Part shown: positions 2,556-17,098 of the stretch, piece after piece
How positions within the stretch are numbered: the stretch's first letter is position 1
Layout: every line of letters begins with the position of its first letter
NCBI GenBank assembly: GCA_014360685.1
Contig: JACIXB010000006.1
Location: forward strand, 31,078-95,077
DNA length: 64,000 nucleotides
From: Actinomycetota bacterium
Lineage (GTDB): Bacteria > Actinomycetota > Geothermincolia > Geothermincolales > RBG-13-55-18
Direction: 5' to 3'
Notes under the pieces: model-generated
The model's input: the letters and a program-made list of their open reading frames with translations, nothing else
What the model was told of the DNA's origin: nothing
The model's database searches: none
Translations under genes and position numbers: made by a program

Positions 2556-3620
2556 TTATCCTATGAGCCTCTCCATCTCGTCGCGGTTGTTGCACCTGGA
2601 CATGGCCACCTCGTAGGAGATGATCCCCCTCTTGTACAGGGCGGCGATGGACTGGTCCATGGTCTGCATCTTGTATTGTCCGCCGGCCTGCATGGCGGAA
2701 TAGATCTGGTGCGCCTTGGCCTCCCGGATGAGGTTGCGGATGGCCGAAGTGGCCACCATGACCTCCACGGCGGGTACCCTGGACTGGCCGTCCTTGGTGG
2801 GCAGCAGCTGCTGGGTGACGATGGCCTGGATGGTGGAGGCCAGCTGCATGCGCACCTGCTGTTGCTGGTAGGTGGGGAAGACGTCGATGATGCGGTCGAT
2901 GGTCTGGGGCGCGTCCTGGGTGTGCAGGGTGGCGAAGACCAGGTGGCCGGTCTCCGCGGCGGTGAGGGCCGTGGAGATGGTCTCCAGGTCCCTCATCTCT
3001 CCCACCAGGATGACGTCCGGGTCCTGGCGCAGCACGTACTTGAGGGCGTTGGAGAAGGAATGGGTGTCGCCCCCCACCTCCCTCTGGTTGACGATGCACT
3101 TCTTGTGCACGTGGAGGAACTCTATGGGATCCTCCACGGTGATGATATGCAGGTTGCGGTTCTCGTTGATGACGTTGATCATGGCCGCCAGGGTGGTGGA
3201 CTTCCCCTGCCCCGTGGGCCCGGTAACCAGGACGAAACCGCGGGGCAGCATGCAGAAATCGTAGAGCACCGGCGGGAGGTTCAACTCCTCGATGGTCTTG
3301 ATGCGGTAAGGGATGATGCGGAAGGCGGCCCCGATGCTGTTCCTCTGGAAATAGGCGTTGACCCGGAAACGGGCGCTTCCCGGCACGGAGTAGGAGAGGT
3401 CGAACTCCAGGTTGCTCTCCAGCTGCTCACGCTGCCGGGCGGTGAGGATGCTGTACACCATGTCCCGGGTGTCGTTGGAGGTCAGCTTGGGATATTCTTC
3501 CAGGCGGACCAGGACCCCGTTGATGCGCATAACCGGCGGCGCTCCCACCGTGATGTGCAGGTCGGAAGCGCCCCTTACAAGTACCTCCTCCAGCAGCTCG
3601 TTGATGTCCAGCTTGGCCAC
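2556..3620 (-). CDS. pilT: Type IV pilus retraction ATPase PilT
   Basis: 354 aa. N-terminal ASDLHITVGAPP, Walker A GPTGQGKST, Walker B ILVGEMRD, His box GHLVFATLHT. Size is typical of PilT. Confidence 0.9.
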   Translation of the reverse strand: MAKLDINELLEEVLVRGASDLHITVGAPPVMRINGVLVRLEEYPKLTSNDTRDMVYSILTARQREQLESNLEFDLSYSVPGSARFRVNAYFQRNSIGAAFRIIPYRIKTIEELNLPPVLYDFCMLPRGFVLVTGPTGQGKSTTLAAMINVINENRNLHIITVEDPIEFLHVHKKCIVNQREVGGDTHSFSNALKYVLRQDPDVILVGEMRDLETISTALTAAETGHLVFATLHTQDAPQTIDRIIDVFPTYQQQQVRMQLASTIQAIVTQQLLPTKDGQSRVPAVEVMVATSAIRNLIREAKAHQIYSAMQAGGQYKMQTMDQSIAALYKRGIISYEVAMSRCNNRDEMERLIG

Positions 3621-3659: not shown

Positions 3660-5330
3660 TCACATGATGACCCTCAGCACCTCTTCCAGTGAGGTTATAC
3701 CCTGCCTGACCTTTATGAAACCCTCCTCGCGAAGGGTGCGCATGCCCTCCGACCTGGCCATCTCCGCGATCTCCACGTGGGGGGCGTTCCGTGCCACGAG
3801 GTGCTCGATGTTCTCGGTCACTTCCAGGACCTCGAAGATGCCCACCCGACCCCGGAATCCGGTGTTGTTGCAGGCCGGACAGCCTCGGGGACGGAAGAGG
3901 ACGTGTTCGTCCCCCTCCTCCCAACGGAATCCGATCTTCTCCAGGTACTCCTCATCCGGTTCGTAGGGCTCCTTGCAGCGCACGCAAAGGCGGCGGGCCA
4001 GGCGCTGGGAGCTGACGCAGTCCACCGCGGAGGCGATGAGGAAGGGCTCGATGCCCATCTCCAAGAGGCGGGTCAGGGCGCTGGGAGCGTCATTGGTGTG
4101 CAGGGTGGAAAGAACCAGGTGGCCGGTGAGGGCGGACTCGATGGCGATCTGGGCCGACTCCGGGTCTCGTATCTCCCCGATCATGACGATATCCGGGTCG
4201 CAGCGCAGTATGGACCTCAAGGCCGCGGCGAAGGTCAACCCCGCCTTGTAGTGCACCTGCACCTGGTTGATGAGGGGAAGCCGGTACTCCACCGGGTCCT
4301 CCACGGTGATGATGTTCTTCTTGATGGTGTTGAGAACGTTGAGGGTGGCGTATAGGGTGGTGGTCTTCCCGCTGCCGGTAGGTCCGGTCACCAGGATGGT
4401 TCCGTAAGGCTTGTTGAAGCTCTTGGAATATCTTTCCAAACTATCCTCGCTGAAGCCCAGCTCCTCCAGGCTCATCAGGGAGGCGCTCTTGTCCAGGATG
4501 CGCAGGACTATCTTCTCCCCGTGGATGGTGGGCAGGGAGGCCACGCGGAGATCCACCGGCTTTCCCATGACCTCCACCGAGGTGCGCCCGTCCTGGGGCA
4601 ACCTCTTCTCGGCGATGTTCATGTCTGCCATGACTTTTATCCTGGCCACCACCCCGGGGTGGATCTGCTTGGGGTTGCGCCGTATCTCGTGGAGGACGCC
4701 GTCGATGCGGAAACGGATGCGCACGTCGTTCTCCATAGGTTCGATGTGCACGTCGCTGGCCCGGTCGTTCACCGCCTCGGAGATGAGGAGGTTCACGTAT
4801 TTCACGATGGGGGCGTCCTCGGCGTCCGCCGCTTCCCCCGCCTCCTCGGCCGCCCTTTCCGCGAACTCCTCCGCCCCCAGGTCCAGGTCGGCCTCCGTGC
4901 GGCAGTACCGGTTGATGGCCGCGATTATGTCCTCCTTGGTGGCCACCACCGGTTCCACGTCCATCCCGGTCATGATGCGCACGTCGTCCAGGGCGAAGAC
5001 GTTGGTGGGGTCGGCCATGGCCACCAGGAGCTTGTCCCCCTCGAAACCGATGGGGATGAGGGTGTAACGGCGCGCCACCTCCGCGTCCACCAGGGAGCAG
5101 GCGGAGATGTCCACGTCGTAATTGGCCAGGTCCACGTAGCGCAGCCCGATCTGCCGTGCCAGGATGGAGGTCAGGGCGCCCTCGCTCACCATCTTCAAGT
5201 CCACCAGGACCCTTCCCAGCGGTTCGCCGGTCTCCCGCTGCCTCTCCAGGGCCTGCTGCAGCTGTTCTTCCGTTATCACCCGGTTTTTGAGCAGCAGCTG
5301 GCCCAGTCTTTCCTTCTTGGGCTTCTCCAT
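3660..5330 (-). CDS. pilB: Type IV pilus assembly / type II secretion ATPase (PilB/GspE family)
   Basis: 556 aa. GspE-type N-terminal domain, Walker A GPTGSGKTT, IMIGEIRD, GHLVLSTLHTN, C-terminal tetracysteine CVRC...CPAC. Confidence 0.9.
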   Translation of the reverse strand: MEKPKKERLGQLLLKNRVITEEQLQQALERQRETGEPLGRVLVDLKMVSEGALTSILARQIGLRYVDLANYDVDISACSLVDAEVARRYTLIPIGFEGDKLLVAMADPTNVFALDDVRIMTGMDVEPVVATKEDIIAAINRYCRTEADLDLGAEEFAERAAEEAGEAADAEDAPIVKYVNLLISEAVNDRASDVHIEPMENDVRIRFRIDGVLHEIRRNPKQIHPGVVARIKVMADMNIAEKRLPQDGRTSVEVMGKPVDLRVASLPTIHGEKIVLRILDKSASLMSLEELGFSEDSLERYSKSFNKPYGTILVTGPTGSGKTTTLYATLNVLNTIKKNIITVEDPVEYRLPLINQVQVHYKAGLTFAAALRSILRCDPDIVMIGEIRDPESAQIAIESALTGHLVLSTLHTNDAPSALTRLLEMGIEPFLIASAVDCVSSQRLARRLCVRCKEPYEPDEEYLEKIGFRWEEGDEHVLFRPRGCPACNNTGFRGRVGIFEVLEVTENIEHLVARNAPHVEIAEMARSEGMRTLREEGFIKVRQGITSLEEVLRVIM

Positions 5331-6203
5331 TTACCTTTTCGCCTCCATGTCGCCCCGTTCCACGGCTTTGCGGTAAGCTTCTCGCATGACCTCCAGCGGT
5401 GCGGGCTTCTCCGTCCATAGGGCGAAGGAAGCCGCCGCCTGGTGGATGAGCATCCCGCCTCCGTCCGCCACCCGGGCCCCTCTCTGGGCTGCGAAACGCA
5501 GGAGGGCGGATCGACGGCCGTATTTGAGGTCTATGACCCACTTTCCCTCATCCAGGAACGAGTAGTCGATGGGTAGCTCCTCCCCCTCGTCCCCGGAGAG
5601 AGGGGTGCAGTTCACCACCAGTTGGCAATCCCTCAAGACCTTCGCGCCCTCCTTATCCAGCTTCCCAACCCTAATTTCGGTCGAGGCAACCACGCCCTTT
5701 AACCTCTCCCGCAGCTCGAGGGCCCTGGATTCCGTGCGATTGAGCACGTATACGGTTCGGGCGCCTTCCCGCGCCAGGGCCAAGACCACCGACCTCGCCG
5801 CGCCGCCCGCCCCCAGAAGGCCGACGGTCACGCCGGTGACGTCCACCCCCGCTTCCCGCAGTAGGCCCTGGAATCCCGTCGGGTCGGTGTTGTGCCCCAC
5901 CAGGCGGCCGTCCTCCACCACCAGGGTGTTAGCCGCCCCCAGTACCGCAGCCTCGCCGCGCAGTTCGTCGGCCAACCTCGCAGCCTCCACCTTGTGGGGA
6001 ACGGTCACGTTGGCCCCCCGGAAATCCAGGGCCGCCAAACCCCGCAGGGCGGCGTGCACGTGCTCAGGCTTGACCCGAAGCGGCACGTACACCCAGTTCA
6101 TGGCCAAAGCCCTGAAGGCGGCGTTGTGCAGGGCCGGGGAGAGGGTGTAGGAAATGCCGTGGCCGATAATCCCCACCAATTGCGTATTTCCATCTATTAC
6201 CAT
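5331..6203 (-). CDS. aroE: Shikimate dehydrogenase
   Basis: GIIGHGISYTLSPALHNAAF substrate motif and GLLGAGGAARS Rossmann motif. The maximal ORF reaches 6257, but the ATG at 6203 gives the canonical N-terminus (MVIDGNTQLVGIIG). The stop TAA directly abuts the pilB ATG (TAAATG). Confidence 0.85.
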   Translation of the reverse strand: MVIDGNTQLVGIIGHGISYTLSPALHNAAFRALAMNWVYVPLRVKPEHVHAALRGLAALDFRGANVTVPHKVEAARLADELRGEAAVLGAANTLVVEDGRLVGHNTDPTGFQGLLREAGVDVTGVTVGLLGAGGAARSVVLALAREGARTVYVLNRTESRALELRERLKGVVASTEIRVGKLDKEGAKVLRDCQLVVNCTPLSGDEGEELPIDYSFLDEGKWVIDLKYGRRSALLRFAAQRGARVADGGGMLIHQAAASFALWTEKPAPLEVMREAYRKAVERGDMEAKR

Positions 6204-6362
6204 ATACTCACGCCCTTCCCGCCGAACGTGATCCTGGCGCAAGGTTCTCCTATTCAAGGAATGATGATGATCCGTAACGACGTCATCCGCATCCCCGTTC
6301 CATTATTTTAATCGCCTTCTGCGGGAGCGGGAACGGGCAGGGGGGCTTACCGGACCCGCGAC

Positions 6363-6896
6363 CTACTTGTCCAGGGTCTTCAGGATGTCGTAGAGGAGCC
6401 CCAGGAGTACCTTCTTGACGTCTTCCTTTTCCAGGGCGTTGCAGGGAATTACCTGAATATCTCCGTCGATGTTCAATTCCTTGCGGATCCTTTCTATAAC
6501 CGCCTGCTGGTCTCCGTCCGGCATGCGGGTCGCTCCCACCACGAAGGGAGCGTCGGAGAGCGTGGAGAAGAACTCGAGGATGCGCCTGCCCTCGGGGAAG
6601 GTCTCCGGGCGGCTGGCGTCCAGCATGAGGATGTATCCCAACATTCCCTCGGAGAGGATCTGCCACATGAAATCGAACCTCTCCTGGCCGGGTGTCCCGA
6701 AGAGGTAGAGCACGATGTCCTTGGAGATGGTGATGCGGCCGAAGTCCATGGCCACGGTGGTCTCCGCCTTTACCCTCCGCGTGGAATCGGAGATGGCCCG
6801 CTCGGTGGAGACGATGGCGATCTCGCTTATGCTCTTGATGAAGGTGGTCTTGCCCGCGCTGAAGGGCCCGGTGACCACGATCTTGAAGGAACGCAA
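6363..6896 (-). CDS. Small Ras-like GTPase, MglA/CvnD-like (COG2229-type ATP/GTP-binding protein)
   Basis: 177 aa. P-loop GPFSAGKT, switch-I ETTVAMDFG, MglA/CvnD-style G3 FGTPGQERF. The G4 position reads GATRMPD rather than NKxD. TTG start 15 nt after the PATAN gene stop. Confidence 0.8.
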   Translation of the reverse strand: MRSFKIVVTGPFSAGKTTFIKSISEIAIVSTERAISDSTRRVKAETTVAMDFGRITISKDIVLYLFGTPGQERFDFMWQILSEGMLGYILMLDASRPETFPEGRRILEFFSTLSDAPFVVGATRMPDGDQQAVIERIRKELNIDGDIQVIPCNALEKEDVKKVLLGLLYDILKTLDK

Positions 6897-6911
6897 CTCC
6901 CCTTACACCCC

Positions 6912-9900
6912 TTACAACCTCTTTATGCCGTCTATGATGCGCATGATCAAGCTCTTGGTTACCGCCTTATCCCGTTTCACCTTGGGCACCGGCTTTCCCT
7001 TTTCTATTTCCTCCACCCTGCCCTCTTCTCCTTTCGGCTTTATAGGTATCTTTATCTTCTTGGTCGGCTGCGGCACGGCGGCACCGGTGAGCTCGGCCAG
7101 TTCCCTTTCCAGCGAATAGCGGTCGATATCCAGCTCGCCGTACTCCACCTCCGCCGTTTCTCCGGGAGGAACCGCCGCGGCGGTTTGCGCCTCCCCGGTC
7201 CCGGCCATTGTGTGCATCGGCTTTTTCTCCTCCGGGGTTAACGGCCGGGACGCGGGGTACACGGTCTCCGTGGAAGCGGCGGACGGTCCTGCCCCTGGTG
7301 CCACTTCTTGCTCCTCCACCGGGGAAATCTCCTCCAAGCCGCCTTTCGCCTCTTCAGCGACTGTTAATCCAGCCTCTTCCCCGGTCTCCGGCTTTTCATA
7401 CCCGGTCAGGGGGGCGCTCTCCGGCTCGGTCACCGGGAGGCTTTCCTCCGGGGCCCTCTCCGGCGCCGGGGGCGCCTCTGCGGGCGGGGATTCCACCAGC
7501 TGCCCCATGAGGTCCAGGGTCCGGGGGGCCTCTTCCGCCGGGGGAGCCTCGGACACCGCCTCCGGGGGTGGAGCCTGCTCCGGTTGAGCCAGGGTGCTCT
7601 CCGGCTCGGTCACCGGGAGGCTTTCCTCCGGGGCCCTCTCCGGCGCCGGGGGCGCCTTTTCCTCCTCCAGTTCCTTTACCAGTTCTTCTATTTCGGCGGC
7701 CATCTCCGGAGCCTGAGGTTCGGAGCTCAAGATCTCCTCCTCGAGGGCACTCAGCTCCTTTTCCAGATCCTCGAGTCCCAGGACCTCCTCAGGCTGTCCT
7801 CCCTCCAGGATTTCCTTTTCCAGTTCCTCGATCTCCGAGAGTATGTCCTCGCCCGGAATTCTTTCATTCAGCCCCAGGGCCTGGAGGGAATCATCGACGT
7901 CGAAGAAGGTTCCGGAAGCAAGGCCGGCGTGGGCTTCCTCTTGGATTCCGGTTTCGGAAACCTCCATCACTTCGCTTTCCCCGGCCAAGGCCTCCTCGGG
8001 GGGGAGGTCCTCGAGCATGACCCTCTCCAGGACCTCCGCGGCCGCTTCTCCGGTTTCTTTCTCCTCCTCCCGGGCCTCCGTCCCCAGGTCAGCCCGGGCC
8101 GTCTCGGGCAGGGTTTCCCCGGCCAAGGTCTCCTCGGGGGGGAGGTCCTCGAGCATGACCCTCTCCAGGACCTCCGCGGCCGGATATCCTTCTTTCGCCG
8201 GAGATCTACCCGTTCTCCTCTCCAGCTCCTCCAGTGGTATCCTCACCGTCATGGAGCCCTTCTCATGCGGGCCTCCCAAGCCAGCCAGTATCTCGTCCAG
8301 GCTACGCTCGCTGATCCGGCGCAGGTAGGCCTCATCGGGATGTTCCGAGGGAGAGACGGTTTCCGGTTCCTCGGGAAGCCCGGTCCCGACCTCGATCCCG
8401 GATCCTTCCCCCACCGGCTGCCCACGGAGGCGGAAAGTGCTTCCCAGTATCCTTGATGGATCCAGCGCCGGAGTAACCGGACCCTCCAAGGAGAGAGGTT
8501 TTTCCGCCTTCTCTCCCCAAGTCTTCGAGAGGTGGCTCTTCCATTCCTCGGGTATCTCGTCGGGCTCCAGTTCCGGTATTTCCTCATCCCTGGCCAAGCG
8601 GGCAATCTTGCCGTATTTCTTCTCCAGGTAGGCCCTCTTGGCCGCCCGGGCCTCGGCGCTCTCCCGGGTCATCCGTTCCAACGGCGGAGACGGCGTCTCC
8701 GGCTTGGGAAACGGCTTCTCCTCCGGTTCCTCAAGGGCCATTCCTTCCGGCAAAAGGGCACTTATCTTGCGCTTCAACTCCTCGAGCTCCGCTTCCTTGC
8801 TCTCTATCTGCAGTACTTTCTCCGCTTCCTCGCTCTCCTCCATGGCGGCTTTCTTCATCTCCTGGATGGCCTGTTCCTCTCTCCTTCTCTCCTCCTCCAG
8901 GAGACGCAGGGAACCATTGAGGATATTGACATCCGCGGTACCGGTCCCCGGAAACGCTCCGGTGGGGGTCTCGGCGCTCTCCTCTTCGATGAGTATCTCT
9001 CCCTCCGAATCGCCTCCTATCTCTATCTCGAGGGGCTCCGCCTCTCCCGCCTCCGGGGAAACCTCCGCCGCCTCCACCCCGGCACCCTCTTCCAGGGACA
9101 CGGGGAGTTCGGGAGGAAGCAACGTCTCCGCAACGGCCTCCCCGGGTAGGGACTCCTCCGCTTCGGGGACCGCTCGGGTGATCTCTTGCTCCGCCGCCTC
9201 CACCCCGGCACCCTCTTCCAGGGACACGGGGAGTTCGGGAGGAAGCAACGTCTCCGCAACGGCCTCCCCGGGTAGGGACTCCTCCGCTTCGGGGACCGCC
9301 ACGGCTATGCCCTCGGCGGCCGGGAGGTCCGCAACCGACCCCACCGCCTCCTCTATCTCCGCAACCGGATGACCCTCCCGGGCTTCCTCCGCTTCCATCA
9401 CCTCCGCTGAGGGAAGCTGTTCCCCGGGAGCGGCCTGGAGGGTTTCCGTACTTGCCTCCTCCGCCATGACCTCTTCCCCGGATGCCGGAATCTCCTCCAG
9501 CCTGGGAAGCTCCTCCAGCGGCGGCACCTCCAGGACCCTCTCTTCACCGGCCGCCTCGAGCTCCTGGGCCAGCCTCTCCAGGCGGCTCCCGGCTTCCCTC
9601 TCCTCCCGGTCCGGGGTAACGTTCTCCAGCAGCCCGGAGCTGATCAAACCGTAGAGGATCTTGCACGTATGCAGGGTACTCATGCCGGTCTTTTCCACGA
9701 TCTGGCGAACCGTCTTCTCACCGTCAACGTGGGTCAGAACCATCCACTCCTCAGGGGTCAAGCTTATCTGGGCGGCTTCCCTTCCCTGCATGGAGGTCAT
9801 CTTGAAGACCGTATCGAGGTTGGGTATCTTCTTCTCGATACGGTTCCACTCGTCGAGTCTACGCGAGCCCTCCATGATCAGCTCCTCGGTGCTGATGGAG

Positions 9901-10325
9901 AGCCCTATATCCTCCTCGGGGAAAACCACTCCGGGCTGAAACTCGAACTCGCCGTCCGTCCAACGGAGCATCTCGAAAACGGCGTCCTGGATCTGCTCTT
10001 CTACGAAGACTTCCAGCTGCTCCTTGGTGATGTAGCCCAACCTGATAAGAAGCTGCCCCAGTCGCTGTCCCCTGGCGGTGGTCTTCTGCAACTCCAAGGC
10101 CTCCTCCAACTGGGCCCGGGTGATGATCCCCGCCCCCAAAAGTTTCATGCCCAGGGATTGCCTCTTCCAGTTAGTGGTGGCGAAGAAGACCTCGCCGTTA
10201 CGGAAACATATATAACCCCTGGCTTGCCCCCGGATGAGGTTGAGGGTGCCGTTCTTCTTTCCGAAATTTAGCAACTGGAACAGGTCGGGAAGGCTGAAAT
10301 CCTTTAAACTTCCCTTGAGAGCCAT
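6912..10325 (-). CDS. PATAN (DUF4388) domain protein with about 850-aa acidic Glu/Pro/Ala-rich repeat region
   Basis: 1137 aa. N-terminus [28 protein letters not shown]...GEVFFA is the PATAN/DUF4388 signature. A helical segment follows ([42 protein letters not shown]), then low-complexity acidic sequence with internal duplications and a short basic C-terminus. GGAGGAG SD before the ATG. Confidence 0.75.
7416..7657. repeat. Intragenic direct repeat: two identical 62-bp copies (7416-7477, 7596-7657), period 180 bp
   Basis: Read directly from the sequence. Encodes a duplicated [20 protein letters not shown] block. Confidence 0.85.
7976..8182. repeat. Intragenic direct repeat: two 69-bp copies (7976-8044, 8114-8182), one mismatch, period 138 bp
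   Basis: Read directly from the sequence. Encodes a duplicated [17 protein letters not shown](A/T)LAGE block. Confidence 0.85.
9063..9299. repeat. Intragenic direct repeat: two identical 111-bp copies (9063-9173, 9189-9299), period 126 bp
   Basis: Read directly from the sequence. Encodes a duplicated [37 protein letters not shown] block in the PATAN protein. Confidence 0.9.
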
Positions 10326-10621
10326 GGCCTCTCTCCTCCAGCCGGTCGGATCTTCTCGCCCCGGCTGTCCGTGGTAATCGGACCCTCCTTCAGGTCTTCC
10401 AACAGGTCTCCCATTTTTATTTATTCGTATAAAGTCGCCCTTTTGATAACTCTACTTGTCGCCCCGCGGCCCCCTTCTTCCTTCTTCCAGTCCTCGACTT
10501 TCGCCGAGCGGCACAATCCCCGCGATCGGAAGCCCATCTCTCCCCAACACGAATATATAACCAAACCTCGATTTTTGCTCGGTTACCTCGGCCACCCCCG
10601 TGCTCGCTTATTCCGCCCGCG

Positions 10622-11020
10622 CTACTCGTATTCGATGCGGAACTCCGATTTAATTATCTCGGCGATCTTTTTCGCCGCTCCCTTCACGTCGTAGAGCACA
10701 AGCCCAAGCTTGCTCCCCTTACGCACCAGGGCGGTGAGAACCGCGTCCTCCCCGGCGGCCATGAGGAACACGTATCCTTCCTTGCCCTCCACGAAAACCT
10801 GGGCCAGCTCTCCACGCCCCAGCTCCTCGGACGTCCTCTCACCCAGGCTGAGCAGGGCCGCGGACATGGCACCCAAACGGTCCTCTTCCAGGGTATTGGG
10901 AAGCACCGAGGCCATGACCAGGCCGTCCATGCTCACTACTGCAGCCGCGTCCACCTCCGCGGACTTGGAAACCAGCTCGCTCAGCGCGCTGCGCAGCCTT
11001 GCTTCCCTCGATTCCGCCAA
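10622..11020 (-). CDS. Roadblock/LC7 (MglB/CvnB-like) domain protein, paralog 1
   Basis: Core AAAVVSMDGLVMAS...LGAMSAALLSLGERTSEELGRGELAQVFVEGKEGYVFLMAAGEDAVLTALV. The maximal ORF starts at 11071 (GTG). The TTG at 11020, preceded by CGTTTCGGGAGGT, aligns with the start context of paralog 2. Confidence 0.75.
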   Translation of the reverse strand: MAESREARLRSALSELVSKSAEVDAAAVVSMDGLVMASVLPNTLEEDRLGAMSAALLSLGERTSEELGRGELAQVFVEGKEGYVFLMAAGEDAVLTALVRKGSKLGLVLYDVKGAAKKIAEIIKSEFRIEYE

Positions 11021-11077
11021 GTAACCGACCTCCCGAAACGACCACGATTCAAGCCATGGACCAGAAGGCACCCCGCT

Positions 11078-11452
11078 CTACTGGAAGAGGGCGGACAGTT
11101 CTTCCGCCGTCCGCTTGGCCTCCATGAAAACCACTCCCAGTTTGGCCTCCGGCCTAACCAGCAGCGACAGCAGCGCGTCGGGCCCGCAATGCACCAGCAG
11201 CAGGTAACCCTGATCGCCTTTTATATAGGCCTGCTCCAGGGATCCGCGCTTCAGGTCCCGGGCGGCCCTTTCTCCCATGCTCAACACGGAGGCGGATAGA
11301 GCGCCGATCATCTCCTCGTCAGCCTCGTCGGACATGTCCGAGGCCAGAGCCATGGCATCGGAGCTGATGAGCACCGCCGCCTCTATTTCCGGCAGGTTGG
11401 ACCTCAACTGCCGGAGCACGGAATTCATCTTCTCGATGCGGTCCGATACCAA
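11078..11452 (-). CDS. Roadblock/LC7 (MglB/CvnB-like) domain protein, paralog 2
   Basis: 124 aa. EIEAAVLISSDAMALAS...IGALSASVLSMGERAARDLKRGSLEQAYIKGDQGYLLLVHCGPDALLSLLV. TTG start 5 nt after a GGGAGG SD. Confidence 0.8.
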   Translation of the reverse strand: MVSDRIEKMNSVLRQLRSNLPEIEAAVLISSDAMALASDMSDEADEEMIGALSASVLSMGERAARDLKRGSLEQAYIKGDQGYLLLVHCGPDALLSLLVRPEAKLGVVFMEAKRTAEELSALFQ

Positions 11453-11509
11453 GTCAACCTCCCGAAACGGACTGCCGCACGCCGCCGGGTTTCAGCTTCC
11501 CGGAACGGG

Positions 11510-11863
11510 TCACAGAGAGCTCTCGATGACGGGAAGGAACTTCCGGATGTCGTACCTTGCCTTCCCCAGGTTGGCCCCCGCGGGCAGGATGGAAACCAGG
11601 ATGGCGTCGGCCCCCACCGCACTCATGAGGATGGCGCCCTTCTCGAATTCGAACATGGCCTGGGACATGGGACCCTGAGCGAGCTCCAGCCCTATGACCT
11701 CCGCAGCCCCCAAGGAGCTGGGGGCTATGGCACCAACGGCCTCCAGGTGAGAGGCGTCTTCGCCCGCGGTCTCGATGATGAAACCATCCCTTCCCACCAC
11801 CAGCGCGGCTCGAACCGTACCGGTGGCCACCAGTTCCTCAAGAACCTTCCTCAGATCGGGCAA
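11510..11863 (-). CDS. Roadblock/LC7 (MglB/CvnB-like) domain protein, paralog 3
   Basis: 117 aa. VRAALVVGRDGFIIETAG...GAILMSAVGADAILVSIL. TTG start 7 nt after a GGAGGTG SD. Confidence 0.8.
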   Translation of the reverse strand: MPDLRKVLEELVATGTVRAALVVGRDGFIIETAGEDASHLEAVGAIAPSSLGAAEVIGLELAQGPMSQAMFEFEKGAILMSAVGADAILVSILPAGANLGKARYDIRKFLPVIESSL

Positions 11864-11994
11864 AACGCACCACCTCCTGCCCCGGGAAAAACCGGTCTAG
11901 GCCCTTATGGGCTAACGGTCCGCTTTCTCCGCCACGGTTCCGCCGGATTCCACCGAACCCGGATGCCTCCCGCGTCCGTTAATACTGTTGCTCA

Positions 11995-12023
11995 ATTATA
12001 ATAAAGTCAACTTCTTACTCCAA
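11995..12023 (-). promoter_or_regulatory. Candidate sigma-70-type promoter for the Roadblock-PATAN-GTPase array (TTGGAG-17 nt-TATAAT)
   Basis: This is the only A/T-rich island in the 400-bp gap between the ferredoxin gene and Roadblock paralog 3. On the minus strand, -10 TATAAT is at 12000-11995 and -35 TTGGAG at 12023-12018. Confidence 0.25.
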
Positions 12024-12268
12024 TGGTTAAGTATCGACATCTTCGCCCTTTTCTTAACCGGGTCAGGGCTTCAATTCCCTATTTTAGTCCCCTTCGCGCG
12101 GGCATGATAACCTCGTCCTCCAAAACCTCGACGGTTTACATGCCCGCCATCCGCCGGGTTCCAGGCCCCGGCCGACCACCATGGCCCCGTGGATGTTGAC
12201 GCTTTGGCCCGATCCCCTCCGTCAAGCCTCCCCGTGAGCGGTTACGGACCTTCCGCGTCTGAACCGCC

Positions 12269-12538
12269 TCAATAGATGGCCGCCTCCTTGTTCCCGGCCC
12301 TCGGGTCAACGTACCCCTCCCACCGCCTCAGGCCGTCGACGGTCAAGGCAAGGGAGCGGCATACCTCCACGCAGGTAAGGCAGGCCAGGCAACTTCCCGG
12401 ATTGGCCACCCGTGGCACCCGCTCCCCCCTCTCGAAGACCGGAAACTGGGTTCCCCCGGTCTGAGGGCAGAGTTCCACGCACTCCCGGCATCCGATGCAC
12501 CGGGCCTCGTCCAAGAGGATACTGCGTTCCTCGGCCAT
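12269..12538 (-). CDS. 2x[4Fe-4S] ferredoxin-domain protein
   Basis: Cluster motifs CIGCRECVELCP and CLACLTCVEVC. The ATG at 12538 follows a strong GGAGGTGG SD and lies 20 nt after the large-subunit stop. The maximal ORF reaches 12574. Confidence 0.75.
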   Translation of the reverse strand: MAEERSILLDEARCIGCRECVELCPQTGGTQFPVFERGERVPRVANPGSCLACLTCVEVCRSLALTVDGLRRWEGYVDPRAGNKEAAIY

Positions 12539-12558
12539 CCCGTCCCACCTCCTGCCGG

Positions 12559-13869
12559 TCAATGAACCCCGCATGGAACACAGGGGGAGTAGGCCCTCAC
12601 CACCATGTGCAGGACATCGCTCACCCTTTCCTGGCCCTCCTTCTCGACGGAGGCGAAGGCCTCAGCCAGGGATTTCTCCAGGTTCCGCAGGTTGAACTGC
12701 AGTGGGGAGACGATGGAAAGCTCTTCCACCAGCCCCTTTTCCCCCAGCTCCACCCCGTAGACCAACCCCCCCTCCGGGGCCTCGATATACACCCCGGCCT
12801 TCCCCGCCGCCGGGTTGAGGGTCTCGCCGAGCGTTCCCCGGAAAGGCTCCCTCAGGAGCTCGAGCATCCTCTCCCAGGCATGGAGCATCTCCAACATCCT
12901 CAACGCGTGAGCCACCATGGGATAGCGAACCGGGAATCCCCAAGTCTCCTTCAGCTCCGATAATTCCTCGTCCGCCCTCGGGGTACCGTACCTCCCGTTC
13001 ACGTTGACGCGCGCCAGGGGCCCCACCGTCAAGCCTTCCGTCCCCTCCAACCCGGCATAGACGACGTGCCCGCTCGTCGAGGGCTCCTCGCGCAGCCTCT
13101 CCCCCAGGTCCTCCACGGGACGGGGTTCCACCACTTCCGTTCCGGGAGTGAACAGTGCCGGGCTGCCCCCGGTTATCCCCATTCCACCCGGGTCGTGCCC
13201 GGCCAAAAAGGAACCTCCTATGCTCCCCGCCCTGCGGACCGTCTCCTCGCTCCTCCTCAGCAGCAGCTTGACCAGCCTGGCCGTCTCCAGCAGCAGCGAT
13301 TCTCCCGACCTCAATCTGTCCGCCAACCTCTCCCGGGACTCCACCGGGAGATCGCGCACCACTCCCCCGGGACGGAAATTGACCCCGTGCACCGTCGGCC
13401 CCCCCGTCTCGCGGAGCACCGCGGTGCCCAGGGACTTCAGGCTCAATAACCTTCTCACCACTTCCTCGTCGACCCGGTATATGCTCACCAGGTTGCGCAG
13501 CCCGGGGTCCGACGAGGGGAATAGGAGGTCGGGCAGGCCGTGCACGAAAAGCGATACCGCATGGCGCTCGAAAAACTGGGCCCAAAGCGCCAGTTCGCGC
13601 ATGGACCTGGCGGCGGGAGGGACCTCCACCCCCAGCGCCTTTTCCACCACCAGGCAGGCGGCCGCCTGGTGGAACAGCGAATCCGGCCCGCAGATACGCG
13701 AGACCAGGGGCGGCAGGTTATCCACGTGCACCCCGCGGGCCATCATCTCGAAGCCCCGGTAACCAAAGGCGGAGAAACGTACCCGCGGGGATATCCCCTC
13801 CTCCGCCTCCACCCGGAGGGAAGCGTGGCCGAATATCCTAGTCAGGGGTCCTATAACCAGATGGGCCAT
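12559..13869 (-). CDS. [NiFe]-hydrogenase large-subunit-like protein (FrhA/MvhA-size) with altered active-site motifs
   Basis: 436 aa. N-terminus GPLTRIFGH (canonical TRIEGH). L1 motif RICGPDSLFH (canonical RxCGxCxxxH). The C-terminal L2 motif SPCVPCGVH is immediately followed by the stop codon. Sits adjacent to a small-subunit gene. Confidence 0.75.
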   Translation of the reverse strand: MAHLVIGPLTRIFGHASLRVEAEEGISPRVRFSAFGYRGFEMMARGVHVDNLPPLVSRICGPDSLFHQAAACLVVEKALGVEVPPAARSMRELALWAQFFERHAVSLFVHGLPDLLFPSSDPGLRNLVSIYRVDEEVVRRLLSLKSLGTAVLRETGGPTVHGVNFRPGGVVRDLPVESRERLADRLRSGESLLLETARLVKLLLRRSEETVRRAGSIGGSFLAGHDPGGMGITGGSPALFTPGTEVVEPRPVEDLGERLREEPSTSGHVVYAGLEGTEGLTVGPLARVNVNGRYGTPRADEELSELKETWGFPVRYPMVAHALRMLEMLHAWERMLELLREPFRGTLGETLNPAAGKAGVYIEAPEGGLVYGVELGEKGLVEELSIVSPLQFNLRNLEKSLAEAFASVEKEGQERVSDVLHMVVRAYSPCVPCGVH

Positions 13870-13922
13870 GTCCCTAAGCGCTCCTTTTCACCAACCCTCT
13901 TTCGGCCTCTTTCCCATTTACC

Positions 13923-14816
13923 CTATTCTCCCAAGCGATGCAGGTAGGGCGAAGTCCCCCCGGAGCGGCGCTTCCGCAGCAGCGGTTCCGCGAGACAGAA
14001 GAAGTAATAGGTATGGGCGGGATCGGGCACCTCGGCCCTGATCTCCTCCTCCTTTTTTCCCGTCGCCCTGGCCAACCTCCGCACCGTCTCCCCCTCCACG
14101 TCCGCTCCCTTGCGTTCCAGCACCCGGCCCGAGGGACCCCGGCAACCCCTGCAGGGAACGCCCATCCCGGAGGGGCAGAGGGCCCCGCAACCGTCGCGGG
14201 TCAGGGGACCGAGGCAGAAAAAACCGGAGTCGAGGAGGCATTTTCCCGGCTCGCCCGAACCCTCCGTAAGTCGCCGCGGTCCCGGCTGGGGGAGGGGCGG
14301 GGAGGTCACCTTGCATTCCGCGCATACCGTGGCGCCCTCCCTGGATAACCGGTCCCCCGAAACGGCCGAGCGGAGGAATCCCTCCAGGAGCGCGGGGACG
14401 GGAGGGCACCCTGGTAGATAAGCGTCCACCCGGATGAAGGAATCCAGGGGCAGGAGCCTCCTTACTCCCTGCGGACCACCCTCGAAGGCGGTATCCCCGA
14501 AGCGCGACCTCAAAAGGCGGGATTCGGGATAGAGGTCCGCCAGCCCTTGAACCCCGCCGAAACAGGAGCAGGTCCCCAGGGCCACCACGCGATCCGCCTT
14601 CTCCCTGATCTCCCGGGCCTTGAGGAAATGTTCCGTGTTCCTCACCGTGCCCTCCACCAAGGCCAGGTCGGCGTGGTGCAGTTCCTTCTTATCCATGAGG
14701 AAGGGTGCGTACACCACCCGGTTCCCGCCGATCAGCTCGTAAAGGTACTCCTCCAGGCTGAGGAATACCATTTGGCATCCCAGGCACGAGCTCAAGGACA
14801 GGAGGGCGATATCCAT
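13923..14816 (-). CDS. [NiFe]-hydrogenase small-subunit-like protein (FrhG/MvhG, NuoB-fold)
   Basis: 297 aa. Proximal-cluster cysteines present (SSCLGC, GTCSCFGG, LPGCPP). The C-terminal half is Cys-rich (CAEC, CLGPLTRDGCGALC, CRGC), consistent with medial and distal clusters. Confidence 0.75.
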   Translation of the reverse strand: MDIALLSLSSCLGCQMVFLSLEEYLYELIGGNRVVYAPFLMDKKELHHADLALVEGTVRNTEHFLKAREIREKADRVVALGTCSCFGGVQGLADLYPESRLLRSRFGDTAFEGGPQGVRRLLPLDSFIRVDAYLPGCPPVPALLEGFLRSAVSGDRLSREGATVCAECKVTSPPLPQPGPRRLTEGSGEPGKCLLDSGFFCLGPLTRDGCGALCPSGMGVPCRGCRGPSGRVLERKGADVEGETVRRLARATGKKEEEIRAEVPDPAHTYYFFCLAEPLLRKRRSGGTSPYLHRLGE

Positions 14817-14819
14817 GAT

Positions 14820-15314
14820 TCACTCCAGCGTAGTCCTGAGGACCACCAGGCAGGCCCCGGGGCCCGCGTGCCGGGTCTGCAGGTCCACCCGGCGACCGAA
14901 GATCTCCTGGAGCATCCCGGCGGCATAGCCGTGTACCGCCTGGCAGGCCACGCCACCGAGGGGTATACCAGAGGCCAGGCAGGAACGACGCAAGGGACAT
15001 TCCTCGAACAGCAGCCTGACCATCATTTCCTCAGCCTCGAAGACCCAGTAGTCCTCGTCTTCCTGGTTCTTCCAGAGAGAGACCTTCCACACCTCATCCC
15101 GGCCTGGAAAGACCCACCCGAGGGCGCGTTCCAGATCCTCGGTGCGGTCGTAAGCGGCGGATTCCCTCTTCCCCAGGTCCTTGCCGGCAAAATACAAGAG
15201 CTGGGCGGTGGACCTACCCGTCACCTCCCCTCCGGCACGGTCGAGGATGGCGAGGATCTCACTCAGCGCCCTCCACCTGCCGGTCAGTATCTCCAGTTCT
15301 TCTTCCATCCTCAC
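14820..15314 (-). CDS. V4R (4-vinyl reductase / Bet3-like) domain protein
   Basis: 164 aa. The C-terminal half, EECPLRRSCLASGIPLGGVACQAVHGYAAGMLQEIFGRRVDL...GPGACLVVL, fits the V4R Cys/Gly pattern. The stop lies 3 nt before the small-subunit start. Start is GTG at 15314 or ATG at 15308. Confidence 0.5.
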   Translation of the reverse strand: MRMEEELEILTGRWRALSEILAILDRAGGEVTGRSTAQLLYFAGKDLGKRESAAYDRTEDLERALGWVFPGRDEVWKVSLWKNQEDEDYWVFEAEEMMVRLLFEECPLRRSCLASGIPLGGVACQAVHGYAAGMLQEIFGRRVDLQTRHAGPGACLVVLRTTLE

Positions 15315-15495
15315 CCGCCACCAGAAGCCGGGGTAGCGGTCTCCGCCCGCCCCGTACCGTTCCGGGCTTCAAGCAATCCAAGCCCGAACTTGTCCCGCTT
15401 TCTTCAATTATTAAACATGAAAGGCTTGATGCGCGCCACCGCCAAACTGGTGGAAATTGCCATGAAAATCCGTCCGCAAGAGCCTGAAGGCGGGT

Positions 15496-16677
15496 TTACG
15501 TGCCCTGCACTTCCGCCTTGACCCTCAGGAACTCCTGGTAATCGGCGGTGAAGAAATGGCCCCCGTCCCCGGTGGCCACGTAATAGAGGTAATCCACGTC
15601 CGCCGGTTCCAGGGCCGCCTTTATGCTGGCCATGCCGGGGCTGCAGATGGGCGCCGGCGGCAGCCCCTTGTGCAGGTAGGTGTTATAGGGAGAGGGAGTC
15701 TTCAAGTCCTCGTAGGTGAGCACCGGCTTCCATTCCGGCAAGGCGTACTGTACCGTGGCGTCTATCTGGAGCATCATCCCCAGGCGCAGGCGGTTGTAGA
15801 TCACCGCAGCCACCAGCGGCCTTTCCGGGTCCAGGGCTACTTCCCTTTCGATGAGGGAGGCGACGATTATCACCTGGTAAGGGGTGACACCAAGCCTTTC
15901 CGCCCGCGACCAGTCCAACCCGGCGGTCTCCGCTTTGAACTGGCGGAGGAGGACCTCCACCAGTTCCCGGGGAGTGATATCCTGCGGAAGCTCGTAGGTC
16001 TTGGGGAAAAGCAGGCCTTCCAGGTTGTTCTTCTGTTCCTCGGGAAGGATGTCCACGCGGTAGTCGCCCGCCGTGGCGGCCTCCAGGAATTCCTCCGCTT
16101 CCATGCCCGTGACCCGCGCCACCAGCTCCGCCGTCTGCGCCACCGTGAGCCCTTCCGGTATGGTCAAGCGGACCTGGTAGTTGGGGCCCGCCTCGAGGAC
16201 GGAGAACACCTCGCCGTAGCGCATCCCGGGATTTAGGAGGTAGTGCCCGGCCTGGAATTTTCCCTGCCTGCCCTGCACCCAGGCCAACAACCGGAAAAGG
16301 GTGGCCGAGGTGACCACGCCCTCCGCGTGGAGCTTCGCCCCGATGGAGGAAGCGCTTTCCCCCTCCTCTATGACCACGTGCACGGGCCGGTCCTGGCGGG
16401 TGGGACAGAAGTAATGGCGGTAAAGCAAGACGCCCGCGAGGAGAAAGATCACAAACAGCGCCGCCAGGACAAGGTACTTCCTGCGGCGGCGGGCCTTCCG
16501 CAACGCGCTGACCCGGGCTTCTTCGACCGGTAATGCCTCCCTCGCGCCACCCCGGGGACGCGCGGCCGGAGATAGAGGCAAGCCTTCGCCTCCACCTTCC
16601 GGTTGACGACCTTCAACGTGAGTTAACTCTTCACCCTCCGGTACGTCTTCCCCGGGCCTGCCCGGCAAATCATCCAT
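15496..16677 (-). CDS. mltG: Endolytic murein transglycosylase MltG (YceG-like)
   Basis: Single TM (YLVLAALFVIFLLAGVLLY), YceG core, C-terminal GLPPAPICSPG. The N-terminal extent is uncertain. The maximal ORF overlaps the ruvX stop by 8 nt. Confidence 0.85.
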   Translation of the reverse strand: MDDLPGRPGEDVPEGEELTHVEGRQPEGGGEGLPLSPAARPRGGAREALPVEEARVSALRKARRRRKYLVLAALFVIFLLAGVLLYRHYFCPTRQDRPVHVVIEEGESASSIGAKLHAEGVVTSATLFRLLAWVQGRQGKFQAGHYLLNPGMRYGEVFSVLEAGPNYQVRLTIPEGLTVAQTAELVARVTGMEAEEFLEAATAGDYRVDILPEEQKNNLEGLLFPKTYELPQDITPRELVEVLLRQFKAETAGLDWSRAERLGVTPYQVIIVASLIEREVALDPERPLVAAVIYNRLRLGMMLQIDATVQYALPEWKPVLTYEDLKTPSPYNTYLHKGLPPAPICSPGMASIKAALEPADVDYLYYVATGDGGHFFTADYQEFLRVKAEVQGT

Positions 16678-17098
16678 CTCCTTCCGACTTTCCCCCCCTC
16701 CTGCAAGCGTCCAGGTAGGACTGTAGGATGACAGCCGCCGCCTGGGCGTCCACTCTTTTTCCCCTCTTGAGGCCGCCCGTCTCGCGCAGCCTCTTCTCGG
16801 CCTCCACGGTGGAGAACCTCTCGTCCCATATCACCACCCGTACCCCGGCCAGGGAAGCGAGCTCCTCGGCGTAGGCACGGACCCTCTTCGCCTCACTTCC
16901 TTCCTGGCCCCGGAGGGTGCGGGGAAGACCGAGGACCACCGTGTCCACTCCCTCCCCGGTCCTTTGCTCCACGTAAGCGCGCAGCTCCCCGGGGGACATC
17001 CCGGGGAGGGTTTGGTAAGGGAAAGCGTATATTCCCAGCGGATCCGACAGGGCCACGCCTATGCGGCGCCTTCCGATGTCCAGCCCCAGGCTACGCAT
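16670..17098 (-). CDS. ruvX: Putative pre-16S rRNA nuclease / Holliday-junction resolvase-like YqgF
   Basis: MRSLGLDIGRRRIGVALSD YqgF signature. 142 aa. Overlaps the alaS stop by 8 nt. Confidence 0.9.
   Translation of the reverse strand: MRSLGLDIGRRRIGVALSDPLGIYAFPYQTLPGMSPGELRAYVEQRTGEGVDTVVLGLPRTLRGQEGSEAKRVRAYAEELASLAGVRVVIWDERFSTVEAEKRLRETGGLKRGKRVDAQAAAVILQSYLDACRRGGKSEGDG

Follow-up and report, generated by a model that had tools for sequence, protein, structure and literature searches.

The analysed stretch of 64,000 nucleotides from an Actinomycetota bacterium (assembly GCA_014360685.1, contig JACIXB010000006.1; hereafter the window) contains nine co-directional genes between mltG and aroE, which combine homologues of [NiFe]-hydrogenase subunits with Roadblock/LC7 proteins, a PATAN domain protein and a small GTPase. 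As judged from related loci, this block is ancient and has been inherited vertically at one site in a deep anaerobic actinobacterial group. The alignments suggest that its hydrogenase-like half codes for a hydrogenase-derived iron-sulfur complex with a remodelled metal site, for which canonical H2 catalysis is unlikely. From homology and gene context, we infer that the Roadblock, PATAN and GTPase genes code for a small-GTPase switch on the pilus motor that responds to cyclic di-GMP (c-di-GMP) and probably acts on type IV pili. A sensory coupling of the hydrogenase/V4R module to the GTPase is plausible, and the case for it is circumstantial. The block and its flanks are arranged as follows:

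15496 to 16677: mltG, followed by ruvX and alaS, on the other flank of the block
14820 to 15314, minus strand: predicted V4R-fold protein of 164 amino acids (aa), first gene of the hydrogenase-like set
13923 to 14816, minus strand: HydS, MvhG/VhuG-like homologue of hydrogenase small subunits (297 aa; Oxidored_q6; VhuG, 170 bits)
12559 to 13869, minus strand: HydL, homologue of [NiFe]-hydrogenase large subunits (436 aa; NiFeSe_Hases; VhuA-like, 149 bits)
12269 to 12574, minus strand: 2x[4Fe-4S] ferredoxin (fdx; open reading frame (ORF) of 101 aa; Fer4 families, two CxxCxxCxxxC motifs)
11864 to 12268, minus strand: intergenic gap of 405 bp, which holds a conserved sigma-70-like site
11510 to 11863, minus strand: Roadblock/LC7 protein 1 (Robl1; 117 aa; Robl_LC7)
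11078 to 11452, minus strand: Roadblock/LC7 protein 2 (Robl2; 124 aa; Robl_LC7)
10622 to 11071, minus strand: Roadblock/LC7 protein 3 (Robl3; 149 aa; Robl_LC7)
6912 to 10325, minus strand: PATAN (DUF4388) protein (1137 aa; DUF4388, 126 bits)
6363 to 6896, minus strand: small GTPase of the MglA/CvnD family (177 aa; ATP_bind_1, 60 bits, and Ras)
5331 to 6257, minus strand: aroE, shikimate dehydrogenase, between the GTPase gene and pilB (alternative start codon at 6203)
3660 to 5330, minus strand: pilB, type IV pilus extension ATPase (T2SSE and MshEN domain)
2556 to 3620, minus strand: pilT, retraction ATPase (T2SSE)

The gene identities were obtained by profile searches against Pfam and NCBIfam, which directly identified eight of the nine ORFs of the block. 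Together with the gene calls, they bear out the coordinates and identities that an initial annotation, made from the DNA letters, had given for nine minus-strand genes. The flanking mltG and aroE were also confirmed with Pfam, the aroE start at 6203 instead of 6257 being a choice of start codon, and the remainder of the window is indeed a conserved backbone of housekeeping genes (aspS, hisS, relA, secDF, tgt, queA, ruvB, yebC, pdxST and others). The lack of a CvnA-type kinase and a DUF742 protein noted in the same annotation holds as well, since neither family was matched in Pfam or NCBIfam by any of the nine block proteins. Two points go beyond that annotation: pilB directly follows the aroE stop and is itself followed by pilT, and the PATAN protein contains an MshEN-type motif.

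The closest relatives of HydL were all found in metagenome-assembled genomes (MAGs) of Actinomycetota, with Candidatus Solincola tengchongensis at 76% identity. The HydL family comprises 74 clusters at identities of at least 44%; the next matches fall to 27–32% and belong to archaeal group 3 enzymes. Loci of the Solincola type were compared from 17 species-representative MAGs and 20 metagenome loci (scan with the PATAN N-terminus), and every one that is long enough showed the same order, alaS-ruvX-mltG-V4R-hydS-hydL-fdx-Robl1-Robl2-Robl3-PATAN-GTPase-aroE-pilB-pilT, without exception. The same block was present in L110–112, with identities of 53% for alaS, 33% for HydL, 34% for HydS and 33% for V4R, and consisted there of V4R, hydS and hydL together with an uncalled ferredoxin, two Roadblock genes (neither of them close to Robl1), a PATAN protein of 1190 aa and the GTPase, followed by aroE and pilB-pilT-pilC. 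It was also found in L113 (alaS 48%, HydL 31%, V4R 52%) with three Roadblock genes, and a 3-kb contig (L108) carried V4R, hydS, hydL, fdx and a Roadblock gene in a row. Throughout the relatives, pilB lies downstream of the module, and pilT is 81–99% identical across the hydrogenase-bearing lineages. It is the identical site in the Solincola-type loci and in lineages with alaS identities of 47–53% that argues for ancient vertical inheritance. The initial annotation had treated the two halves of the block as one unit, and they co-occur wherever HydL genes exist, namely in about 30 Solincola-type loci and three very divergent ones, without a counter-example. Relatives carrying the halves at unrelated loci were not encountered, the block being at the same site throughout, and the hydrogenase-like genes do not travel with hyp maturation genes, none of which appeared in Pfam scans of the flanking genes and the larger ORFs elsewhere in the window.

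A sister lineage, represented by 60 metagenome loci and one locus from a Coriobacteriia MAG, has PATAN N-termini that are 47–52% identical to that of the window. In its loci, alaS-ruvX-mltG is followed by about 2.9 kb coding for an ABC-transporter ATPase, two unknown proteins and a HAD hydrolase, and then by aroE, a pilB gene (pilB'), Roadblock, PATAN and GTPase genes, an unknown gene, pilB, pilT, pilC, a pilin gene and pilD. The mltG-aroE junction, for which the initial annotation had suggested a comparison with close genomes where it is uninterrupted, is therefore not uninterrupted in this lineage. Its single Roadblock protein is about 58% identical to Robl3, its GTPase about 55% to that of the window, and its PATAN protein has a length of about 640–760 aa; hydrogenase-like genes were found in none of these loci. 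Because Roadblock, PATAN and GTPase genes lie between two pilB genes near aroE in the sister lineage, the GTPase half of the block is not foreign. As far as gene order can tell, the comparison shows it to be a resident component of the pilus neighbourhood beside aroE, which would work without the hydrogenase-like genes. It also shows that the region was rearranged between lineages and that Robl1 and Robl2 are extras limited to the hydrogenase-bearing lineages.

Some further features of these regions were observed. In four of the sister loci (L054, L056, L058 and L096, at about 7500–15300), both pilB paralogues flanking the Roadblock, PATAN and GTPase genes are of full length, and loci of the Solincola type have one pilB. 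The ABC-transporter ATPase gene at 1619–2548, which follows pilT in the window, and the unknown gene beside it (787–2548 in total) resemble the genes between mltG and aroE in L056 (3757–6115), a likeness that would point to a local rearrangement around aroE. Two loci of an Anaerolineae type, which do not contain a hydrogenase, have a V4R gene two genes away from PATAN, GTPase and Roadblock genes. These conserved strings (L024, 284–6659; L025, 9104–15846) code for a PATAN protein of 272–285 aa, a GTPase, a Roadblock protein (L025 only), an alpha/beta hydrolase, a V4R protein and a hexapeptide transferase, and continue with a Shikimate_DH-like protein, a GGDEF response regulator and a giant multi-GAF protein, which connects this GTPase family with V4R and with signalling by c-di-GMP in a second phylum.

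By their sequences, both hydrogenase-like subunits are derived from group 3c (Mvh-type) [NiFe] hydrogenases: HydL matched best to MvhA (5odc_F, 288 bits) and HydS to MvhG (5odc_E, 169 bits), and in NCBIfam the models for VhuA and VhuG ranked first. The Cys residues of HydS that align with MvhG over residues 3–235 are kept, even in the most divergent lineage. In [NiFe] hydrogenases, the Glu of the N-terminal RxEGH motif, which acts in the proton relay, and the Asp of the C-terminal DPC motif are functionally important. HydL of the window has TRIFGH in place of RxEGH and RICGPDSLFH in place of RxCGxCxxxH, which replaces the bridging Cys by Asp. Its last residues are SPCVPCGVH, so that the Asp of DPC is replaced and the protein ends at the final His without a cleavable tail. 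The Glu is absent from all 74 members of the HydL family, where its position is hypervariable (F, Y, N, S, G, M, I and others), and is present in 94 of 110 representatives with a readable motif. The outgroups, like the more distant loci L108 and L110–113, came from 1.8 billion representatives that were searched exhaustively with a profile; most of the approximately 120 nearest ones with a readable motif keep RxEGH, the four Cys, DPC and a tail of 20–28 aa. An archaeal protein that also lacks the Glu (P0077) proved to be an ordinary NuoEF-linked hydrogenase with the protease HycI nearby and is not part of the system.

Other motif positions of HydL vary by lineage. The Asp of DPCxxC is replaced by Ala or Ser in the Solincola-type proteins and by another residue in the deeper lineages. 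Where RxCGxC has its second, bridging Cys, 31 loci encode Asp and the six basal ones Cys. The four metal ligands differ between lineages and read C,D,C,C (as in the window), C,C,C,C or C,C,H,D (L113). The C-terminus of HydL in L113 (9300–9339) reads NPHFHDAVF in frame, the pair of C-terminal Cys being exchanged for His and Asp and both N-terminal Cys kept; L113 is a single short-read contig, on which HydS, ferredoxin, V4R and the three Roadblock genes are intact. HydL of P0306 lacks the last Cys. The ratios of nonsynonymous to synonymous substitution (dN/dS) were 0.05–0.08 for the V4R gene, 0.08–0.18 for hydS, 0.17–0.26 for hydL and 0.16–0.36 for fdx, which demonstrates that the four genes are under purifying selection and not decaying. 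The spacing of 3 nt between the V4R stop and the hydS start and the overlap of the hydL and fdx ORFs suggest that V4R, hydS, hydL and fdx form one operon. Because the listed fdx start overlaps the end of hydL by 16 nt, the true start of the ferredoxin may be an internal Met.

The first gene of this set was the one whose product escaped direct identification: its Pfam match to V4R is below threshold (E=0.052, 14 bits vs. a cutoff of 31), as are the weak matches of eight of 12 orthologues. An AlphaFold2 model built on 26 orthologues (pLDDT 82.6) gave MopR/PoxR/DmpR sensor domains and TRAPPC3/Bet3 as best Foldseek matches (probability 1.00; TM 0.5–0.64 to MopR, PoxR and TRAPPC3), and because of these matches the product is assigned, on the strength of its predicted structure, as a V4R-fold protein. 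The V4R identity proposed in the initial annotation was thus confirmed at the level of the model. In the PDB, a profile of the V4R family gave no meaningful match. The family consists of 59 clusters, 58 of which match at 197–307 bits and one weakly and partially, and the residues C106, C112, C124 and C155 as well as H128 and H149 are invariant. Cys residues of a V4R domain act in redox sensing in MsvR (PMC3729527).

In the other half of the block, the GTPase has the P-loop GPFSAGKT and the G3 motif GTPGQE (L-F-G-T-P-G-Q), which places Gly at the Asp position, followed by Thr; for the MglA type, PMC3000849 gives Thr78 in place of the Asp (TxxGQ). GTPase orthologues are at least 81% identical within the Solincola group, and the next relatives, at about 55–64%, include clusters named as Anaerolineae, Coriobacteriia, Frankiales and Mycobacteriales. 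Thermus MglA (3t12) was matched weakly (26 bits). Robl1 is 82–99% identical across the Solincola-type loci and was found only in lineages with hydrogenase-like genes. Robl2 is about 40% identical to Robl3 and 61–98% identical across the Solincola-type loci, and Robl3 is the counterpart of the single Roadblock protein of the sister lineage (50–62% identity). The nearest solved structures to Robl3 are a Roadblock protein, CvnB5 (3leq, 64 bits) and Rv3364c, with MglB as a weak match. Robl1 and the GTPase have dN/dS ratios of about 0, and the PATAN N-terminus has one of 0.015–0.03; alaS, at about 0.1, is thus less tightly constrained.

The PATAN protein begins with a conserved N-terminal part of 260 aa, continues with an acidic, repeat-rich middle of variable length and ends in about 75 conserved residues, with identities among relatives of 76–89% for the N-terminus and 69–84% for the C-terminus. 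Residues 58–111 match NF053729, a model for MshE-type c-di-GMP binding, at 50 bits (cutoff 38), and on comparison with the published consensus contain two MshEN-like motifs in tandem. The protein has no Response_reg match in Pfam and therefore no receiver domain. Its gene contains a perfect tandem duplication of 126 bp at 9063–9299 (1.9 copies, 100% match) along with other internal repeats. Among the relatives, the middle part ranges from about 640 to 1470 aa, and in L003 and L022 two ORFs take the place of the single gene, perhaps owing to frameshifts or assembly errors in the repeats. PATAN genes sometimes adjoin MglA/MglB genes (PMC4316618), and PatA-type regulators in Synechocystis have a PATAN domain that binds the N-terminal domain of PilB1 as well as PilC (bioRxiv 10.1101/2021.06.11.447907).

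The gap between the two gene sets contains a promoter-like site on the minus strand, with a −35 box TTGGAG at 12023–12018, a spacer of 17 nt and a −10 box TATAAT at 12000–11995; in an alignment of 18 loci, 14 retain the −10 block. Its position before Robl1 suggests that the Roadblock genes can be transcribed separately, and because they have a conserved promoter-like site of their own, the two sets need not be co-expressed. Upstream of this site lies a conserved box, GAAATGACGATATCTAT, of the ATG(A/T)CGATA type (window 11975–12045, minus strand; gaps of L001–L022), and many relatives have a similar sequence, AATGTCGATA, about 60–90 bp downstream, so that the two look like a pair of regulator-binding sites. 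The gap box AATGWCGATA occurs at chance level in the window, without a second copy upstream of the V4R gene, and thus provides no evidence of co-regulation of the two sets. An Rfam scan of 5000–17000 at a permissive threshold gave one chance-level match to a small RNA, and no riboswitch accounts for the gap. A consensus scan, which is weak in an actinobacterium of 63% GC, detected no intrinsic terminator in the gap separating the two sets, nor in the stretch from the GTPase gene to aroE. A second gap of 296 bp between Robl3 and the PATAN gene (10326–10621), at which the GC content dips locally to about 0.58, may hold another promoter. Because the pilB start codon (5330) directly follows the aroE stop, aroE is apparently transcribed together with the genes of the pilus motor; the aroE-pilB adjacency is common to all three lineage types, and transcription of the Roadblock-PATAN-GTPase set probably reads on into aroE-pilB-pilT.

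We tentatively propose a model that leads from a sensor via a switch to the pilus, and give it in its full form somewhat less than an even chance. The Roadblock proteins would regulate a GTPase of the MglA/CvnD kind, and the PATAN protein would bind c-di-GMP through its tandem MshEN-type motifs and engage the PilB/PilC pilus motor through its PATAN domain, with pilB as the probable output target. From these three assumed activities, the switch would set where or when type IV pili extend. V4R, HydS, HydL and ferredoxin would form a complex sensing redox state, H2 or a small ligand instead of a working metabolic hydrogenase, because the proton-relay Glu, the Asp of DPC and the C-terminal tail are lost and the metal ligands are variable. 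The state of the sensor would be passed to the switch via V4R and the extra Roadblock proteins of the hydrogenase-bearing lineages. In this model, we infer that c-di-GMP is bound, that pili are the output, that the complex serves as sensor and that the two sets are linked, be it physically or by regulation. The initial annotation had suggested such an input in place of CvnA. The coupling is favoured by the HydL family having been seen only where Roadblock genes follow immediately downstream, in three lineages whose HydL proteins are about 31–33% identical, by the missing catalytic residues, by the presence of two to three Roadblock genes in the hydrogenase-bearing lineages vs. one in the sister lineage, by the V4R gene near PATAN, GTPase and Roadblock genes in the two Anaerolineae-type loci, by the spacing of 3 nt between V4R and hydS, and by the V4R fold, which is a sensor fold and also that of TRAPP subunits. 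The link to pili is favoured by the sister module, which has a pilB gene on either side and is then succeeded by pilT, pilC, a pilin gene and pilD, as well as by the pilB start at the aroE stop of the window, the published contacts of the PATAN domain with PilB1 and PilC, the recorded neighbourhood of MglA/MglB and PATAN genes, and the c-di-GMP motif. A bolder version, in which a hydrogenase has turned into a receptor and V4R-HydSL-ferredoxin sets a GTPase of the CvnD/MglA type via the extra Roadblock proteins, steering PilB/PilT with the PATAN protein as scaffold in an H2- or redox-guided twitching motility, appears rather unlikely to us.

Several observations weigh against a coupling of this kind. 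All loci share one ancestral, syntenic site on a very stable backbone; they are therefore not independent and amount essentially to one evolutionary event, and the adjacency could persist by descent alone. The switch is conserved in the sister lineage without any hydrogenase gene, and the Roadblock genes of the block have their separate conserved promoter-like site upstream of Robl1. The two halves evolve at unequal rates, with identities of 82–99% for Robl1, Robl3 and the GTPase and of 41–75% for HydL, except in the nearest relative. The four Cys of the V4R protein may have no other role than to hold a structural zinc, like those of PoxR and Thor-TRAPPC3 (PMC10933270). A working redox enzyme would also be compatible with the kept cluster ligands and the dedicated ferredoxin. 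With its predicted binding of c-di-GMP, the PATAN domain may already offer an input to the switch. A profile comparison of the Anaerolineae V4R proteins with that of the block revealed no specific similarity, so that this association concerns the fold class only.

Some of these points would equally be expected if the two sets were independent neighbours, with V4R-HydSL-ferredoxin as a functional soluble hydrogenase, or a related redox enzyme, that stems from group 3c and may serve mvhD/hdrABC products encoded elsewhere in these genomes, and with the Roadblock-PATAN-GTPase set separately regulating pili; the adjacency would then be due only to the very stable backbone. We regard this as possible, if on balance doubtful. 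It agrees with the separate promoter-like site, the cluster ligands of HydS and the ferredoxin, the purifying selection on all four genes and the occurrence of the GTPase module alone in the sister lineage. The alaS-ruvX-mltG-aroE order shows that unrelated genes can stay linked for very long. For the related clade RBG-13-55-18, published genome surveys report hydrogenases of group 3c as well as mvhD/hdrABC clusters (PMC7325909). However, such an enzyme would have to operate without the proton-relay Glu, at a position that is unconstrained, and with ligand sets differing by lineage, which is true for almost none of the approximately 120 nearest canonical relatives with a readable motif. Moreover, no MvhD or HdrABC gene was present within 10 kb in any locus, the HydL family was never found away from Roadblock genes, and the hyd-Roadblock junction survived in three deep lineages, although the sister neighbourhood was rearranged, as can be seen from its ABC transporter, its additional pilB and the place of aroE.

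The direction of the relation may also be reversed, with the GTPase, Roadblock and PATAN proteins positioning or assembling the hydrogenase-like complex, for example at a pole or the membrane, as cargo or effector and not as sensor. The exclusive co-occurrence and the restriction of the extra Roadblock genes to hydrogenase-bearing lineages would fit, switches of the MglA type are known for directing protein machines to cell poles (PMC4316618), and the long acidic PATAN protein with its conserved ends looks like a scaffold. Nevertheless, we consider this improbable, since the same module is located inside a pilus cluster where the hydrogenase is absent, HydS and HydL give no hint of membrane or polar targeting, and there is no precedent. 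Still less credible is the acquisition of the whole 9-kb block as an accessory island in the mltG-aroE junction, which the initial annotation had proposed. It draws on the adjacency of mltG and aroE in M. tuberculosis and other distant actinobacteria and on a slight dip in GC content at the block edges (0.58–0.62 vs. about 0.65). For this group, the view is contradicted by the block's identical location in all Solincola-type loci and in the lineages with alaS at 47–53% identity, by the orthologous counterpart of the GTPase half, resident a few kb away in the sister lineage, and by an overall composition close to that of the surroundings; no integrase or transposase was matched among the proteins scanned, with no search made for repeats.

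Literature searches on Roadblock-hydrogenase combinations, on hydrogenases of Solincola or Geothermincolia and on natural Asp variants of the bridging Cys yielded no description of either the variant active site or the combination. If the proposed coupling is real, it would explain in molecular terms how cells move towards H2 or a redox state and would be a new type of signalling pathway, the first from a hydrogenase to a small GTPase, in anaerobic acetogen-like actinobacteria, as well as a bacterial case in which V4R (TRAPP-like), Roadblock and small GTPase proteins act together as a single encoded unit. In Asgard archaea, genes for Roadblock, TRAPP-like and GTPase proteins are generally not organized in operons (PMC10933270). 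With V4R, three Roadblock proteins, PATAN and GTPase in one string beside pilus motor genes, the block represents a tractable system for studying Roadblock/TRAPP-like regulation of GTPases. The HydL clade itself, which is natural and under purifying selection, has lost the Glu and varies in ligands held to be invariant, would represent either a new metal site or a repurposed hydrogenase. If members of the HydL family are among the group 3c enzymes of the survey mentioned above (PMC7325909), H2 metabolism would have been mis-scored in widespread subsurface and hot-spring actinobacteria.

Compared to known systems, the hydrogenase-like half resembles the group 3c enzymes MvhAG/VhuAG in the best matches of both subunits, the gene order of small before large subunit and the kept aligned Cys residues of the small subunit. 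It fails four defining features of this group and is a variant within the [NiFe] large-subunit superfamily. HydL lacks the Glu of RxEGH, has Asp for the bridging Cys and SPC or APC for DPC, and is devoid of a cleavable tail. The locus contains the V4R protein and a small ferredoxin as partners instead of MvhD/HdrABC genes. The group 2b hydrogenases HoxBC/HupUV are cytoplasmic pairs encoded beside signalling genes, whose large subunit has no C-terminal extension and which serve as sensors, not as energy enzymes. The block shares with them the HydL without C-terminal extension, the pair of small and large subunit beside signalling genes and the proposed sensor role. However, HydSL is nearest to group 3c and not related to group 2, its four-Cys site is not conserved, and the partner would be a GTPase/Roadblock system instead of the histidine kinase HoxJ, with no kinase match among the nine block proteins. 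The predicted fold of the V4R protein is that of PoxR/MopR sensor domains and TRAPPC3 (Bet3), and its four invariant Cys fit the four-Cys structural zinc site of Thor-TRAPPC3 and PoxR (PMC10933270), whereas its sub-threshold Pfam match and its nature as a stand-alone protein, encoded tightly against a hydrogenase small-subunit gene, set it apart.

The second half of the block contains a CvnD-like ATP_bind_1 GTPase and CvnB-like Roadblock proteins as in the conservons (CvnA-CvnB-CvnC-CvnD). Because CvnA and CvnC (DUF742) are absent, it is not a conservon, and it differs further by its PATAN protein and the context of pilus genes. With the MglA-MglB systems of Myxococcus, Thermus and Bdellovibrio and the cyanobacterial PatA systems it has in common a Ras-like GTPase, one or more Roadblock proteins and a PATAN protein beside pilB/pilT, and with the PATAN regulators of pili a DUF4388 domain with an MshEN-like (alpha-clip) insertion. 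In contrast to MglA, the GTPase of the block is nearer to the CvnD type and may differ in its G3 motif (GTPGQ vs. TxxGQ), and the block has three Roadblock genes and linked hydrogenase-like genes; unlike PatA, its PATAN protein carries an acidic repeat region of about 800 aa instead of a receiver domain. The GTPase half is thus a variant of the MglA/CvnD-Roadblock-PATAN systems, distinct from the conservons and from the classical MglAB pair.

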